IMG/VR virus record: IMGVR_UViG_2703718777_000003
Span: 1 to 5,244 of that record
Source: a virus
Taxonomy: Duplodnaviria; Heunggongvirae; Uroviricota; Caudoviricetes
DNA length: 5,244 nucleotides
Reading direction: 5' to 3' (one strand)
Positions 1 to 4,575 of this stretch are shown here, piece after piece (within the stretch, counting starts at the first letter, position 1; the number at the start of each line of letters is the position of its first letter). The translations under genes were made by a program, and so were the position numbers. The notes beneath the pieces were generated by a model. The model was given only the letters and a program-made list of their open reading frames with translations, was not told the DNA's origin and made no database searches.

Positions 1-144
1 CAGTACCAGCACCTGAATCCGCGATTATCCCATATACCTACTCGCTGATTGCCCCTCCGCACAGGGGGATTCACCATGCCAGTTTCTTTTAACAAACTCC
101 CCGCAAACCAGACAACAGTCAACCGCCTGAATTGTGAGACATTT

Positions 145-170
145 AAAAAAAAGGCCCGCAAAAGCGAGCC
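145..170 (-). terminator. Intrinsic terminator immediately downstream of the tRNA-like gene
   Basis: On the minus-strand RNA: 7-bp GC-rich stem (GGCUCGC/GCGGGCC, one G-U pair) with UUUU loop (plus 153-170), followed by an 8-U run (plus 145-152 is AAAAAAAA). On the plus strand the stem has a C-A mismatch and no T-run, so it is minus-specific. Confidence 0.6.
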
Positions 171-184
171 AGGGAAAATAAGTG

Positions 185-260
185 TGGCGCGTTGTACTGG
201 ATTCGAACCAGCGACCTGGCGATTATGCGTCGCTCGCTCTCACCACTGAGCTAAAGGGCC
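185..260 (-). tRNA. tRNA-Ile2/Met-like (anticodon CAU) gene, possibly a pseudogene: cloverleaf body intact, acceptor 3' strand non-complementary
   Basis: Reverse complement of 185-260 reads GGCCCTT-TA-GCTC-AGTGGTGA-GAGC-G-AGCGA-CGCATAA-TCGCC-AGGTC-GCTGG-TTCGAAT-CCAGT-ACAACGC-G-CCA. D-arm, anticodon arm and T-arm (GGTTCGAATCC) are canonical and the 5' two-thirds resembles E. coli ileX as I remember it. But the 5' acceptor strand GGCCCTT cannot pair with the 3' strand ACAACGC (2 of 7 pairs), and position 33 is G rather than the near-universal U. Encoded CCA is present. Confidence 0.55.
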
Positions 261-269
261 GGGAGCAGA

Positions 270-298
270 ATAATAACGGTCCGTAATTAATTCCGCAA
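270..298 (-). promoter_or_regulatory. Candidate sigma70 promoter for the tRNA-like gene
   Basis: Minus strand TTGCGG (298-293), 17-nt spacer, TATTAT (275-270); the -10 lies about 10 nt upstream of the tRNA 5' end at 260. The -35 is weak (3/6). Sequence-only prediction. Confidence 0.3.
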
Positions 299-322
299 TA
301 AAAAACCCGCTCAATGGCGGGT
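296..322 (-). terminator. Intrinsic terminator downstream of the ORF6N gene
   Basis: Minus-strand hairpin ACCCGC-CATTGA-GCGGGT (plus 305-322) followed by TTTTTTATT (plus 296-304). The plus strand lacks a T-run after the stem. Confidence 0.6.
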
Positions 323-418
323 TCTGGTAAAGTTCATGCGCTTGGTTCGCCTCGCGATACAGCTTTGCGAAGCATACAGGAATTGAAGCAGTTTATGTGC
401 AAAAATGCAAGAACTTTT

Positions 419-1000
419 TTAAAGCTGCATCAACCTTTCCACCAGTTTATCTCTGCGAACAACAAACCAACCATTGGCTCTCGCCAGTTCCAGCCATGAC
501 TCAAGGGAAATAACAATATCATCATCCCGTAACTGAATTGTGGAAACAGTGACACCGCCTCTCTGATAACAGAGAACTCGCGTGTCGTAACTTTTCTGGC
601 ATGAAACTGGCGCTGACGGATCCTTTTGTCTGAAATAGCAGTCTTCCAGCTTTTCGAACACATCCCACGCCTGATCGGTTTCCAGCATTTTGGCATGACG
701 GGCTGCTCCGCGTTCTGTCCAGAGGATGAGGGAGCGGGCTTTCGGGGAAATTTGTAACCCTCTTAAAGATGGTTGCAAATTTTGTGAGTAGTTTAAAGCT
801 ACCCGCAAATTTTTCAGGGCATCGCCAGCCACTTTGAAAAAATGCTTTCCTTCAATAAAGCGCTCAGCATTTCTGGCGTAGTTATTTTGAATGTTCTTAA
901 CTCCAGCACCGTACAACTGCGCCAAAAGTTCGGTGGTAATAACAGGAATCTGGTTATGGGTGATCGGGGAGAGAGTTTCAACAGAAATTTGAGTTGTCAT
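419..1000 (-). CDS. ORF6N-domain protein (phage antirepressor-like, DNA-binding N-terminal domain; C-terminal about 90 aa unassigned)
   Basis: 193-aa ORF with ATG at 1000-998 and SD GAGGG 7 nt upstream (AGAGGGCGTCATT-ATG); stop TAA at 421-419. The N-terminal region (ITTELLAQLYGAGVKNIQNNYARNAERFIEGKHFFKV ... ISPKARSLILWTERGAARHAKMLETDQAWDVFEKL) fits the ORF6N pattern (L-YG...N..RN..RF.EG..FF ... tErGa) from memory, not from a search. Confidence 0.8.
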   Translation of the reverse strand: MTTQISVETLSPITHNQIPVITTELLAQLYGAGVKNIQNNYARNAERFIEGKHFFKVAGDALKNLRVALNYSQNLQPSLRGLQISPKARSLILWTERGAARHAKMLETDQAWDVFEKLEDCYFRQKDPSAPVSCQKSYDTRVLCYQRGGVTVSTIQLRDDDIVISLESWLELARANGWFVVRRDKLVERLMQL

Positions 1001-1011
1001 AATGACGCCCT

Positions 1012-1116
1012 CTGGTGGTTTCTAAACCATCACCACCGTCAGGTTCCTAATCATCGGGTGGTGAGACGTACAGGGTTAGGAACTACCGGGAAACCAACCG
1101 GCGAGCTTTTCAGCTC
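1012..1116 (-). repeat. Repeat-rich structured leader: nested inverted repeats with pseudoknot-type topology plus a GAAA-tetraloop hairpin
   Basis: Plus-strand arms: TCACCACC 1030-1037 with GGTGGTGA 1057-1064; GTTCCTAA 1043-1050 with TTAGGAAC 1076-1083 (interleaved S1a-S2a-S1b-S2b); GGTGGTTT 1014-1021 with AAACCATCACC 1025-1035 abutting the SD; GAGCT-TTTC-AGCTC 1103-1116 (GAAA loop on the minus RNA). Confidence 0.5.
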
Positions 1117-1160
1117 CCCCATACGCCCCACCATAATTCAGATGTGCGCGTGCATACGAC

Positions 1161-1186
1161 AATAAAAAACACGCTCGCGGCGTGTG
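1161..1186 (-). terminator. tR'-like intrinsic terminator downstream of the Q-adjacent promoter
   Basis: Minus-strand RNA has a 6-bp GC-rich stem (ACACGC/GCGTGT, plus 1169-1185) with a 5-nt loop, followed by UUUUUUAUU (plus 1161-1169). It lies about 80 nt downstream of the predicted start site. Confidence 0.55.
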
Positions 1187-1247
1187 TCTGTCGCGGTCTC
1201 TATCCGGGGTTCCTAATCCCGACGCCAGATTTTGCTGGCGCGTGAGG

Positions 1248-1277
1248 AATATAGCCCCGGATAACAGATTGAGTCAA
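1248..1277 (-). promoter_or_regulatory. pR'-like late promoter; the -35 overlaps the Q stop codon
   Basis: Minus strand TTGACT (1277-1272), the same -35 hexamer I recall for lambda pR', then a 17-nt spacer to CTATAT or 18-nt to TATATT (1254-1248). The Q TGA stop (1276-1274) lies inside the -35. A short GC hairpin (CGCCAG/CTGGCG, 1222-1241) sits in the initial transcribed region. Confidence 0.5.
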
Positions 1278-1828
1278 CAGACAGTTTTTAAATACCCGGA
1301 AGAGAATGCATCACGCATCGGCAGATAGAGCATATATTCAGCAAGATTTAGCCATACATCTACCCGACTGCAGCACGTCCGAAAACACCACTCAGGGTGT
1401 GCATCATTTAGCAATTCAGCCATTTTGCGCTTACTCATCCCCCGCCCTTCATATCTTTGCCGGAGGATACAAATCAATCCTGGGTGTTCTGCCAGCACTT
1501 CACTAATCACCCGATCAATGCATAACGCCTCTGCATCAGTACAATGCACCAGCCAGCTTTTTTGCTTGCCGTTGATCATATCCCGCAAAAAAGCCTCAAG
1601 TTCAGGTTTGTCCAGACCTGCTTTTTTCATCCTCCGGAGCGCCTCATTAATTGCCGTTTTTGTTAGCTTTTTAGAGGTCAGCAACTGGTTAAACATATTT
1701 CCCGTCTTACCGCCGCCAATATACGACCAGCGCCCCCACATACGTAGTTTTCCCTGAATCCAGACACTTTCCAGCGTGGTGAGACGAAGGTGTTCTCCGC
1801 TTTTTCCTGTATTCGTTGGGTAAATCAT
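1274..1828 (-). CDS. Putative late-gene antitermination protein Q (lambdoid Q-like, 184 aa)
   Basis: ATG at 1828-1826 preceded by a strong SD (GGAGAAAGGAGGGATATTT-ATG). The start overlaps the upstream gene's stop as ATGA. The protein has a WGRW segment and C-terminal Cys cluster (EWCFRTCCSR) resembling Q21-type antiterminators from memory. Position after the DUF1364-like gene and directly before a promoter/terminator pair is the classic Q context. Confidence 0.65.
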   Translation of the reverse strand: MIYPTNTGKSGEHLRLTTLESVWIQGKLRMWGRWSYIGGGKTGNMFNQLLTSKKLTKTAINEALRRMKKAGLDKPELEAFLRDMINGKQKSWLVHCTDAEALCIDRVISEVLAEHPGLICILRQRYEGRGMSKRKMAELLNDAHPEWCFRTCCSRVDVWLNLAEYMLYLPMRDAFSSGYLKTVC

Positions 1829-2115
1829 AAATATCCCTCCTTTCTCCAGATTTCTTGTGTGCGAAAAACACCTTCTGCATGCATCAGGCGTAATTCTTCT
1901 TTGGTGTAATCGCCGGTTTTTACCCGCCCGTCGATTAAATCGTGGCACGAGCTACAGGCAATCGCTGCCTGCATATCGTGTGGCTTTATCGCTGTTCCGC
2001 ACGTTCCCGCCAGTCGGTAATGCGCCAGCACAGACGTTTCGGGATTGTGATTGCAGTAGCCAGGGATTCTGACCTGGCACATCTGGCCCCGCGCTGCTTT
2101 ACGTAAATCCACCAT
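1825..2115 (-). CDS. DUF1364-family protein (YbcO-like putative nuclease with Cys/His metal-binding motif)
   Basis: 96-aa ORF MVDLRKAARGQMCQVRIPGYCNHNPETSVLAHYRLAG...IACSSCHDLIDGR, closely matching my recollection of E. coli DLP12 YbcO. ATG at 2115-2113 with SD GGAG 8 nt upstream; overlaps the upstream stop (TAATG) and the downstream start (ATGA). Confidence 0.85.
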   Translation of the reverse strand: MVDLRKAARGQMCQVRIPGYCNHNPETSVLAHYRLAGTCGTAIKPHDMQAAIACSSCHDLIDGRVKTGDYTKEELRLMHAEGVFRTQEIWRKEGYL

Positions 2116-2714
2116 TACGCAAACTCCAGCAGCTGCGCGGCCACATTTTCGACTTCCTCCAAAGAGGAGAATTTACGGAACAGGATCCAGTTCCACAGCA
2201 CATTCAGTACAGATTTATAAACCTGCTGAAACTCGGTTTCGTCCATGTTCGCAAATGCGATAGATTTTGCCCTGCGCCCACGACTACCGTCCGGATAAAA
2301 ATGTTCGGTGTAAAATCCGGCCTGAATGGTTACCCATTCGCGAAAAGCGTCAAAGGACTTGAGTAAGGCCGTATCCCGGGTTCTGCAAGTCGTAACGGTG
2401 TTAAGGTATTGCTCTGCGGCATCACTCAGGGCTGGCGTATGTTCCCGACCTACTGATTCGCACAGGAAATCAACGAAACCGGACACCAGTTCTCGTTCGC
2501 GAGGCGTGATCGCCCCACCGTTCGGAGTCCAGTAATCGAATCCCAGTTGCAGGAGTTTGAAAAAACGCTTGTGGAACGCGTAGTTACGCACTCGCTTAAA
2601 GTCCGCGTGTATCCACTCACCTATTTTGATTTGATGCAAAAAATCGCAACTCTCCGGCGTCGCCGGGAGAAGTAATCCGGAAGAGGTTTGTTTGACCAGT
2701 TGTATATGCGCCAT
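2115..2714 (-). CDS. nin-region protein, probably DUF1367 family (199 aa)
   Basis: Long ORF with ATG at 2714-2712 and SD GGAG 9 nt upstream (GGAGACAGCA-ATG). The ORF-track start at 2726 is a TTG codon. Stop overlaps the next gene's start. Family name comes from the remembered DUF1367/DUF1364 pairing in lambdoid prophages, not from a search. Confidence 0.75.
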   Translation of the reverse strand: MAHIQLVKQTSSGLLLPATPESCDFLHQIKIGEWIHADFKRVRNYAFHKRFFKLLQLGFDYWTPNGGAITPRERELVSGFVDFLCESVGREHTPALSDAAEQYLNTVTTCRTRDTALLKSFDAFREWVTIQAGFYTEHFYPDGSRGRRAKSIAFANMDETEFQQVYKSVLNVLWNWILFRKFSSLEEVENVAAQLLEFA

Positions 2715-2773
2715 TGCTGTCTCCAATGGCGCTGTAGGTTGCCAGTTGTTCAGGCTGGCTTACGAATTATAAC

Positions 2774-2947
2774 TCATTCCCGAATCACCTTGAAACCGAG
2801 CCTTTCAAGATATTCAATGAATGCCTCGATAGATAAAATTACATGATTATCAGGGATTAACGTTGCGTAGATAACTTCCCCATTCTCAACGCGCACAGCA
2901 TAGAGGCCATTTTCACTAAAAATTTCACGCAATTCTTCGATTTTCAT
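2774..2947 (-). CDS. Small hypothetical protein (57 aa), not in the supplied ORF track
   Basis: Hand translation of the minus strand gives MKIEELREIFSENGLYAVRVENGEVIYATLIPDNHVILSIEAFIEYLERLGFKVIRE. ATG at 2947-2945 with SD GGAAGGA 8 nt upstream; TGA at 2776-2774. It sits about 75 nt downstream of a predicted promoter and 59 nt upstream of the DUF1367-like gene. Confidence 0.55.
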   Translation of the reverse strand: MKIEELREIFSENGLYAVRVENGEVIYATLIPDNHVILSIEAFIEYLERLGFKVIRE

Positions 2948-3028
2948 CAACAGAATCCTTCCAGATAAATAGCACTCCCCTGCTCGGGGTCCATCCCTCT
3001 TCTCCCTGCGCGCTACTTAAGTGCATCG

Positions 3029-3056
3029 ATTCTAGTCAGGCATACCCGCTTATCAA
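3029..3056 (-). promoter_or_regulatory. Candidate sigma70 promoter for the small ORF/DUF1367/DUF1364/Q operon
   Basis: Minus strand TTGATA (3056-3051), 16-nt spacer, TAGAAT (3034-3029), located just downstream of the bidirectional terminator. Sequence-only prediction. Confidence 0.4.
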
Positions 3057-3109
3057 CAAACGAAGGTCGGTTTAGTGGAGGAATCGGCTAAAACTTGATC
3101 TGTTAAAGT

Positions 3110-3136
3110 AAAAAACCCGCCGAAGCGGGTTTTTTG
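3110..3136. terminator. Bidirectional intrinsic terminator
   Basis: AAAAAACCCGC-CGAA-GCGGGTTTTTT: a perfect 6-bp stem with 4-nt loop, flanked by A6 on one side and T6 on the other, so a hairpin plus U-run is formed on either strand. Sits 5 nt after the nuclease gene stop. Confidence 0.7.
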
Positions 3137-3140
3137 TATA

Positions 3141-3626
3141 TTACATACTCTCAATGTCATTTTTTAGTGAGTGCTTGTGTAACTCCATGGAGTAATCAAC
3201 ATCACGAAGAGTTTTTTCAATCTGCTTGTTCCCAATAAAAGGTTTATCTTCAGGGTTACCCCAACAGCAATTCCCCTTGGGCCATCCATGTACTTTCCGT
3301 ACTCTTCCGTTAACAACGTGAAGTAATCCCCAGCCGGGTGGTAAATCCTCAATTGAAATAATTCCCGGCTCACTAATAAAGAATCGCCAGTCGCCCATTC
3401 CAAGAGACGGATTTTTACGAAAACGCTTTTTTCTATCTGCCAACAAGTCAGCACGAGAACATTTCGCCTCTATCAGGCATGATGCTGAATTTCTGAATCC
3501 CATAGCATCTGGCTGTTCTCCGGTACTGGTTACAGCTATAAAGCGGTCATGAAAACAAACCTTGAACCCGTTGCGCTTAAGGAACTTGTACGCAATCTGA
3601 CAGAGTTCGCGGTGTGTTAACGCCAT
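3141..3626 (-). CDS. PD-(D/E)xK nuclease-fold protein, Hjc-like (archaeal-type Holliday-junction-resolvase-like core) with a C-terminal extension of about 80 aa
   Basis: 161 aa from ATG 3626-3624 with SD AAGGAGAG (the ORF-track start at 3656 is TTG). Motif order HRELCQIAYKFLKRNGF ... QPDAMGF ... CLIEAKCS matches the E...PD...(E)xK catalytic core. Start lies 1 nt after the Ead/Ea22-like stop (TGA-T-ATG). Confidence 0.8.
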   Translation of the reverse strand: MALTHRELCQIAYKFLKRNGFKVCFHDRFIAVTSTGEQPDAMGFRNSASCLIEAKCSRADLLADRKKRFRKNPSLGMGDWRFFISEPGIISIEDLPPGWGLLHVVNGRVRKVHGWPKGNCCWGNPEDKPFIGNKQIEKTLRDVDYSMELHKHSLKNDIESM

Positions 3627-3627
3627 A

Positions 3628-4575
3628 TCACTCTCCTTTGATGCGAATGCCAGCAAGCCAGTTTCTTATGCCGATATATTCAGCGTTCCTGAAACCGCTT
3701 TTTACATATATAAATGGCAAGCGAAGATTGTGACCATTGACTGCCAGGTAGTCTTTACAACCCTGTTCGGTGAAACAGCAGGTAACGAATTCATCAATAT
3801 CTTTCACAGCAACGCGCCGCCATTTTTCTGGTGGCTCTCGAAAGTTTTCATGAAGTAGCTCGAGACGACGACTATGGCGTTTATTGGCTTCATTGCCATC
3901 TTCGTCAACCCAGACAATCCGGTCATGGTCATAATCAGCATCAACAACGATTTCGCGCTTTTGATACACACAAAACATGGGATCTGACGTTATTCGATTG
4001 TCCTGTGTTCGAATATTTTCACCGATGATGCCAAACGAATCTGGTGCAGATTTTGTCTGCATCTCTTCGATACGTTCAGCCATCGCAGCACACTCTTCAA
4101 AGTTGCTTAATGCTTTTCGCTCCCATTCGGCGCATTGTTTTTCCAGTTCTGCTATGCGCTTACTTCCATCCGCGATTACTCCCTCGTAATATTCACGCTG
4201 CTCGTTGAGTTTTGATTTTGCTGCTTCAAGCTCAACGCGCAGCTTCCCTACCGTAAGCGCAATATCCTCGTTCTCCTGGTCGCGGCGTTTGATGTATTGC
4301 TGGTTTCTTTCCCGTTCATCCAGAAGCGCCAGCGCAACATTTGGATTAAAGGCAGCAATAAATTCAGCGTTTGCATAAGCCTGAACATCTGTTTCAACCA
4401 GGCAGTTAACATGACATTCTGCAATTACGCCACCGGGTTCTCCTTTCCATTTTTGACAAACAAAAACTCCTGTTATATTCCCATGCTGATTGCCCGATGT
4501 ATGCCCTACGATGTAGCATCCTTTAGTTGCTTTCTCTGCTGCTTCACGCAGCGCCTGATAGTCAATCTCGCTCAT
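3628..4575 (-). CDS. Ead/Ea22-like family protein (conserved N-terminal domain, central coiled-coil, divergent C-terminal domain)
   Basis: 315-aa ORF. N-terminus MSEIDYQALREAAEKATKG... resembles Ead/Ea22-like prophage proteins from memory; the centre is heptad-like and charged (ELEAAKSKLNEQREYYEGVIADGSKRIAELEKQCAEWERKAL). ATG at 4575-4573 overlaps the upstream TGA as ATGA. Confidence 0.8.
   Translation of the reverse strand: MSEIDYQALREAAEKATKGCYIVGHTSGNQHGNITGVFVCQKWKGEPGGVIAECHVNCLVETDVQAYANAEFIAAFNPNVALALLDERERNQQYIKRRDQENEDIALTVGKLRVELEAAKSKLNEQREYYEGVIADGSKRIAELEKQCAEWERKALSNFEECAAMAERIEEMQTKSAPDSFGIIGENIRTQDNRITSDPMFCVYQKREIVVDADYDHDRIVWVDEDGNEANKRHSRRLELLHENFREPPEKWRRVAVKDIDEFVTCCFTEQGCKDYLAVNGHNLRLPFIYVKSGFRNAEYIGIRNWLAGIRIKGE

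Follow-up and report, generated by a model that had tools for sequence, protein, structure and literature searches.

A predicted MmcB-like nuclease family of phages and a probable deletion-fusion remnant of it behind an Ea22-like gene

The window analysed here, the whole 5,244-bp stretch of contig LODC01000085.1 (assembly GCA_001609735.1, a draft genome), carries a 161-residue open reading frame (ORF) immediately behind an Ead/Ea22-like gene on the minus strand of a tailed-phage record. We put at roughly 65% the reading that this ORF is a deletion-fusion remnant of a phage gene whose intact versions encode MmcB-like nucleases. The family is a large, uncurated group of phage and prophage proteins, single-domain, of ~170 residues and with a PD-(D/E)xK fold. 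We hold this fold and the MmcB-like relationship with high confidence; intact members are quite likely to be active nucleases, and the window copy, judged from its lost C-terminal helix, is probably inactive or impaired. The features of the gene, in window coordinates, are as follows.

3626-3141, minus strand: chimeric nuclease ORF, 161 residues, stop codon at 3143-3141; an MmcB-like PD-(D/E)xK body with a foreign tail
3216-3626, minus strand: genuine nuclease portion, codons 1-137, with 90-99% identity to E. coli, Stx-phage and P7 copies
3462-3518, minus strand: predicted catalytic codons E37 (3518-3516), P39, D40 (3509-3507), E53 (3470-3468) and K55 (3464-3462)
3216-3234, no strand: recombination junction from a three-way alignment, a stretch common to both parents (TTCAATCTGCTTG...) that encodes K-Q-I-E
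3144-3215, minus strand: foreign 24-codon tail (KTLRDVDYSMELHKHSLKNDIESM) in place of the conserved C-terminal helix CDYMxSALRRMxxRGHLxxIYDG
3110-3135, minus strand: intrinsic terminator hairpin, 3' of the nuclease stop codon
3638-3633, minus strand: Shine-Dalgarno sequence AAGGAG of the nuclease gene, 6 nucleotides 5' of its ATG and within the terminal K-G-E codons of the Ea22-like gene

The program-made ORF runs from 3656 to 3141 and opens at TTG; the gene itself starts at the ATG at 3626-3624, in agreement with the N-termini of homologues (MALTH...). An earlier sequence-only reading of this stretch had placed the gene at 3141-3626, one nucleotide after the Ea22-like stop codon (TGA, 3630-3628), and both statements were correct. 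It had also proposed a PD-(D/E)xK nuclease, and the motif on which that proposal turned, E37-Q-P-D40 ... E53-A-K55, is present in the window protein and is not due to chance. In an alignment of 232 divergent members to the family profile, 230 have E37, 228 have P39, and D40, E53 and K55 are each present in 231. Positions of the MmcB-type signature are conserved almost as strictly (S57 in 212, R58 in 220, D60 in all 232, D64 in 230), and further residues are near-invariant across the alignment: H5 (221), K67 and R70 (230 each), G78 and R81 (231 each), W99 (228) and E137 (225).

AlphaFold models place the D ... (D/E)-x-K residues on strands 2 and 3 of a restriction-endonuclease-like core (helix, three strands, helix, strand), the arrangement that characterizes the PD-(D/E)xK superfamily. 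The window protein was modelled with a predicted local distance difference test score (pLDDT) of 79, and the full-length relative P0006, from a 77-sequence alignment, with a pLDDT of 93.9 and a predicted template modelling score of 0.87. Neither of the two outcomes that the sequence-only reading had named as fatal to its proposal, a fold that is not restriction-endonuclease-like or motif residues unconserved among homologues, was found. Its picture of the C-terminal half did not survive. The ~80 residues taken for an extra domain comprise strands 4-6 and the C-terminal helices of a single fold in the P0006 model, which is one compact domain, so a separate C-terminal domain was rejected; in the window protein, moreover, the last 24 residues come from another gene. 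The CCWG motif noticed there does exist, at residues 120-123, and was rejected as a functional motif for its low conservation, W122 being found in 123 of 232 members.

Scans of the curated libraries with the window protein returned no match in Pfam or NCBIfam, and a PDB sequence search returned chance matches only. The protein is a clear member of phrog_9263 (E=5e-94) and phrog_631 (E=4e-78), with P0006 scoring 5e-122; neither group has an annotated function, and the family has no Pfam or NCBIfam model. A single-sequence search found 286 family proteins at 90% clustering, and a profile search 3,135 clusters at 50% identity, of which 2,324 had E <= 1e-10. Members occur on 475 viral contigs and in 642 GenBank phage records, including P7 (Upf89.0), Stx phages, Vibrio and Klebsiella phages and Ackermannviridae.

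The nearest relatives were identified by profile and structure. A profile built from 45 divergent relatives reached structure 3DNX at E=1.1e-4 and Hjc only at 0.16. Structure 3DNX is SPO1766 of Ruegeria (Silicibacter) pomeroyi, a member of the MmcB-like Pfam family PF06319, formerly DUF1052 (E=2.1e-32). Alignment of a 77-sequence profile with the SPO1766 fragment by hhalign gave 95.1% probability (E=3.1e-8, 65 columns) and spanned D40, the E-x-K motif, the SRxDFxAD helix, R81 and the LP..GLL strand, with the family motif falling on VD...ECK of SPO1766. The signature that marks MmcB-like proteins, (A/V)D ... E(V/I/C)K followed by SRxDFxAD, is thus accompanied by profile-level homology, and the models also match the fold of 3DNX over the whole chain. 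In the BFVD viral structure library, several top matches carry the annotation of MmcB-like DNA repair protein. Matches to PF06319 itself were found for 12 of the 45 relatives at E up to 1, all below the gathering cut-off of 22 bits (best 21.0), and the window protein and P0006 had none. Because the formal Pfam threshold is not reached, we do not assign the family to PF06319; the most fitting description is that of a phage-borne sister group which has diverged from the MmcB-like/DUF1052 nucleases.

An earlier study predicted that DUF1052 is a PD-(D/E)xK family and is related to archaeal Holliday junction resolvases, carrying an AD-E(V/I/C)K motif and diverging in its C-terminal half (PMC1189080); a 2012 survey of the superfamily lists it with structure 3DNX (PMC3424549). 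In Caulobacter, MmcB is a PD-(D/E)xK endonuclease induced by the SOS response, and it confers protection against mitomycin C and cisplatin (PMC9578287). Both groups are single-domain proteins of similar size (~150-170 residues), and both have the D...E-C/A-K motif followed by S-R-x-D-F-x-A-D and an R...LP..GLL region, at an identity of only ~22-24%. Relative to SPO1766, the phage family has an additional loop, KxFRxxPxxGMG, with invariant K67 and R70, as well as invariant H5, E37 and E137; a conserved C-terminal SALRR helix further sets it apart from MmcB-like/DUF1052 proteins. MmcB is a chromosomal SOS gene of alpha-proteobacteria, whereas the phage genes lie in phage early operons; tolerance of mitomycin C and cross-link damage under SOS control is known for Caulobacter MmcB only.

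The sequence-only reading had suggested that the protein could be the prophage's junction resolvase; on this rival explanation it would be a Holliday junction resolvase of Hjc type, a dimer replacing RusA or Rap/NinG. The Hjc-like motif order was a fair description of strands 2-3, since Hjc (PF01870; 1GEF, 1HH1) has the same PD...ExK core order and spacing. Weak PF01870 matches occur in 28 of the 45 relatives (best E=1.3e-5), hhalign against the Hjc fragment gave 86.5%, and DUF1052 relatives have been tied to archaeal resolvases by profile analysis (PMC1189080). In addition, the window nin region consists of DUF1367, YbcO and DUF1133 genes without RusA or NinG. However, the hhalign match covers 26 columns, the core motif only, and the likeness to Hjc stops at strands 2-3; the match to Hjc structures is weak and does not extend over the whole domain, the helix-1 glutamate is conserved only in part, and the C-terminal half of the phage fold follows MmcB-like proteins. 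The PF01870 gathering threshold (21.1 bits) was not reached by ten inspected relatives (17.7 bits or less), and the window protein had no match at all. Phage PhiR5_1 carries both an intact copy and RusA, which speaks against simple replacement, the gene is often frameshifted or truncated in otherwise similar prophages, and the window copy itself lacks the conserved C-terminal helix. A resolvase role is hence highly unlikely in our estimation, and the whole protein lies nearer to the MmcB-like family. The other families proposed for comparison, VRR-NUC, RecU and Mrr-cat, were rejected as nearest family. Further small PD-(D/E)xK nucleases that count among the nearest described systems are Mrr-cat-like AF1548, NucS and restriction enzymes such as SdaI.

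Beyond the reach of the sequence-only reading was the fact that the last 24 codons (~3215-3144) are foreign to the family. Intact family members are ~171 residues long and end in NKQ-x-E-CDYMxSALRRMxxRGHLxxIYDG; examples are found in P7 (Upf89.0), TL-2011c, many Stx2a phages and PhiR5_1. The window protein tracks the family to E137 and then reads KTLRDVDYSMELHKHSLKNDIESM. From KQIE through this tail to the downstream terminator, the sequence is identical to that at the 3' end of an unrelated 130-residue hypothetical gene (WP_000615960.1), which in an O157:H7 prophage directly precedes the same nin region. Homology to the O157 F3113 prophage covers window positions 1-3234, and homology to the Stx-phage nuclease copies begins at 3216. 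Because the two parental homologies overlap at 3216-3234, the crossover would have fallen in the short shared stretch (TTCAATCTGCTTG), an overlap of ~13-19 bp between the parents. The terminator at 3110-3135, a perfect GC-rich hairpin (CCCGC-UUCG-GCGGG followed by six U; fold energy -15.7 kcal/mol, z = -4.6), is part of the foreign segment on the nin side and is identical in the F3113 prophage; it was detected by RNA folding, the consensus terminator scan having returned no site there.

Related complete prophages have the order Ea22-like gene, nuclease gene, DUF551, hokD, doc or others, terminator and DUF1367, with ~3 kb more DNA than the window. On this alignment evidence, the simplest history would be an in-frame deletion. 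A deletion of ~3 kb between the shared stretch in codons 135-137 and the 3' end of the unrelated gene would have cut away the conserved C-terminal helix and put 24 foreign residues in its place, and such a deletion-fusion would leave the window copy most likely an inactive or crippled remnant. Among the residues lost are S143, A144, L145, R146 and R147, conserved in 190-211 of 232 relatives, and the tail is modelled with pLDDT <55. Frameshifted copies were found in phage phiSTEC801-Stx1a, on plasmid p1303_95 and in strains 61_150228 and F6321, and the frameshifts of this gene in many E. coli prophages match the same pattern of decay. There are also other natural chimeras or fusions of the gene (P0012, P0013), and its 3' part appears to be a recurrent breakpoint. 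In P0012 (E. coli O5), the sequence after ...DDKPF runs DWMLSVAKRETRLADDV..., the body of a 58-residue phrog_1621 protein that is also encoded in the window at 5193-5017 (minus strand).

The chimeric 3' end could alternatively be an assembly artefact of a prophage-rich draft genome, with the true gene full length or located elsewhere. The junction is present only on LODC01000085.1 and in none of 5,426 complete E. coli genomes, the exact 161-residue protein is likewise confined to this contig, and both flanks are repeated prophage sequences. On the other hand, the shared stretch of ~13-19 bp is below the k-mers usually used by assemblers, the contig is on record for two samples, the reading frame is intact across the junction, and P0012 and P0013 demonstrate that C-terminal chimeras of this gene arise naturally. 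We consider an artefact quite unlikely.

Several points nonetheless weigh against the reading of an MmcB-like nuclease family with a deletion-fusion remnant in the window. Nuclease activity of the family members is a prediction throughout, and the window protein and most of its relatives fall under every curated Pfam threshold. The helix-1 glutamate usual in the superfamily is retained only in part (position 7 is E in 109 and D in 54 of 232 members), and the KxFRxxPxxGMG insertion together with H5, E37, K67, R70 and E137, absent from SPO1766, means that substrate or chemistry could differ from MmcB. As for the window copy, the foreign tail is still modelled as a helix, at low confidence, so residual function is possible, and a junction known from one draft contig only could reflect an assembly error.

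If the preferred reading of the intact family as MmcB-like holds, the protein would be a Mg2+-dependent DNA endonuclease. In its active site, strand 2 would contribute E37/D40 and strand 3 E53-x-K55, helix 2 would bear the MmcB-type SRxDFxxD signature (S57, R58, D60, F61, D64), and the invariant basic residues K67, R70, R81, R146 and R147 probably grip the DNA backbone. The gene would be expressed as an early accessory gene and, in enterobacterial phages, is probably coupled in translation to the upstream Ead/Ea22-like gene, whose last codons would provide its ribosome-binding site. As its role we consider it most likely that the protein processes damaged or branched DNA in the course of phage replication, recombination or repair, because MmcB is a DNA-damage repair endonuclease and because the family has exo/bet, Erf/SSB or nin genes as neighbours and a primase neighbour in phage phiSboM-AG3. 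Confidence in any particular substrate is low.

These neighbourhoods differ between phage groups. In temperate phages, the nuclease gene is found beside exo/bet, Erf/SSB or nin genes. It follows Erf/SSB in Cronobacter prophages and adjoins YbcO in a Microbulbifer prophage; on the contig with the Thioalbus copy, lambda P-like, integrase and Mor-like genes lie upstream and the genes around it are unnamed. The virulent Shigella phage phiSboM-AG3 (Ackermannviridae; L092 4980-5591) encodes a 203-residue homologue, matching over residues 4-105, whose gene overlaps the start of the gp61 primase gene, an arrangement suggestive of a replication role; the partial match recurs in related Ackermannviridae phages. 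Clustering of neighbouring genes revealed no informative recurrent partner, the largest cluster (22 loci) having no Pfam match and only PHROGs of unknown function. A PADLOC search at E up to 1 returned no defence family for the nuclease, the Ea22-like protein or the 58-residue ORF.

The tight coupling to the Ea22-like gene that had been read from the sequence was confirmed for the window by the one-nucleotide spacing and by the AAGGAG inside the Ea22-like codons. The adjacency is real and probably results in translational coupling. To place it in a wider context, 80 viral loci were surveyed and Ead/Ea22 genes counted by iterative profile searches from three seeds; plain BLASTP with the window Ea22-like protein found two loci, an under-count. 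An Ead/Ea22-like ORF lies within 4 kb in 23 of the 80 loci and directly upstream in nine, with a gap of 0 or -1. The loci with such a neighbour all fall in the closest branch, the enterobacterial one (L009-L042); no Ead/Ea22 neighbour was found in the more divergent loci L043-L088, nor in the Microbulbifer prophage, on the Thioalbus contig or in the Ackermannviridae phage. The same stop, single nucleotide and ATG recur in Stx phages, in PhiR5_1 and in P7, where Upf88.3 ("similar to Ead") precedes Upf89.0. The P7 pair (L093 3313-4516) lies in the hea operon behind a C1 repressor operator, and Upf89.0 is 99.4% identical to P0006; this pair accounts for the 246 matches to plasmids of ~95 kb in E. 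coli.

One alternative is that the nuclease is the effector of a two-gene module, controlled or targeted by the coiled-coil Ea22-like protein in lysis-lysogeny decisions, defence or toxicity. The recurring junction, with a one-nucleotide gap or an overlap, is consistent with this, as is the presence of the same pair in lambdoid phages and, under C1 control, in the P1-like phage P7. Ea22 reportedly promotes lysogeny (PMC7093339), and in Salmonella P0108 an entire nuclease domain is fused to a short N-terminal segment of Ead. Three Salmonella enterica proteins of 240-245 residues named ead/Ea22-like (P0108, P0107, P0116) have this build: a short Ead N-terminus, low-complexity QHL/NRQ repeats and a complete MmcB-like nuclease domain. 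Yet the neighbour is missing from the divergent loci and the other contexts named above, PADLOC returned no match, and Ead N-termini are combined with many different C-terminal parts, 17 PHROG families having been matched. The lambda ea22 gene ends in the same ...GCTGGCATTCGCATCAAAGGAGAGTGA as the window gene and the two sequences part right after the stop codon (L091 848-870), so that the 3' end of ea22 behaves, in these alignments, as a mosaic boundary. Adjacency limited to part of the family could simply reflect exchange of cassettes. What is left of the claim that the nuclease works with the Ea22-like protein is adjacency within the enterobacterial branch, and we regard such an effector as unlikely. 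Similarly doubtful is the broader proposal that Ead/Ea22 and the MmcB-like nuclease form a mobile two-gene module with a conserved overlapping junction, occasionally fused, common to lambdoid, Stx and P1-like P7 phages. Were it true, it would link the prolysogenic effect of Ea22 to controlled DNA cleavage or would represent a new defence or counter-defence system.

The mosaic boundary bears on a reported property of Ea22 proteins, namely that all end in K/R-G-E, the significance of which was given as unknown (PMC7093339). In the window (3628-3640, minus strand), the K-G-E codons and stop (AAA GGA GAG TGA) contain the AAGGAG ribosome-binding site of the next gene, and where divergent Ead-like genes precede the nuclease gene, their ends read ...GGAGG..GAGTGATG. 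The K/R-G-E ending may be a nucleotide-level signal, a ribosome-binding site at a mosaic boundary, rather than a feature of the protein. The C-terminal half of the Ea22-like protein (residues ~162-314, window 3628-4100) matches phrog_3205 only, a group without annotated function, and no family in Pfam; this half constitutes an uncharacterised domain of its own.

The remaining genes of the window, given here in transcription order, are all on the minus strand, as are all genuine genes of the window according to the ORF list and the Pfam and PHROG scans.

4923-4741, minus strand: DUF7167 gene, first in transcription order
4766-4572, minus strand: 64-residue ORF
4575-3628, minus strand: Ead/Ea22-like gene, 315 residues (PF13935, E=4.9e-45)
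2950-2774, minus strand: 58-residue ORF
2726-2115, minus strand: DUF1367/NinB-like gene
2115-1825, minus strand: YbcO/DUF1364 gene (PF07102, E=8.8e-45)
3' of YbcO in transcription order, minus strand: Q-like DUF1133 gene
1000-419, minus strand: ORF6N antirepressor gene, last in transcription order

The second putative nuclease (DUF1364) that had been noticed ~1 kb downstream is the YbcO gene at 2115-1825. Stops and starts overlap among the DUF1367 (NinB-like), YbcO and DUF1133 (Q-like) genes at 1825-2726, and in prophages of the window type no RusA or NinG/Rap gene was found between these three; the PhiR5_1 nin region, in contrast, reads NinB-NinE-YbcO-RusA. Between the Q-like DUF1133 and ORF6N antirepressor genes, Rfam models matched the minus strand of 1054-1254 with isrK (1164-1241, 69 bits), C4 antisense RNA (1054-1138, 67 bits) and an a1/b1 target (1201-1254). 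This segment is a P1/P7-type immunity module of C4 RNA and antirepressor within a lambdoid late-control region. Two further minus-strand Rfam matches lie in 1-254: an STnc100 small RNA (1-108), cut off by the contig end, and a partial tRNA-like match (195-254, model positions 7-64 of 71). ARAGORN called no tRNA in the window; in related prophages, tRNA genes are present at the position of 1-254.

The superfamily and the nearest family of these nucleases are already known, while the phage family itself is uncurated and uncharacterised in the searchable literature: no paper characterizing phage MmcB-like proteins was found there, and the paper modelling exo-xis proteins mentions no nuclease. The window gene is an ordinary, probably damaged accessory gene and, as a deletion-fusion remnant, unsuitable as a reference for its family. 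These results do not overturn current understanding; the gain is an annotation and a modest experimental target in the poorly understood exo-xis / ea region, together with a reading of the K/R-G-E ending of Ea22 as ribosome-binding site and mosaic boundary for whichever gene comes next. For a very common "hypothetical protein" of Stx, lambda-like, P7, many Vibrio, Klebsiella and Ackermannviridae phages, the analysis provides a testable predicted identity with named catalytic residues, that of an MmcB-like PD-(D/E)xK endonuclease.
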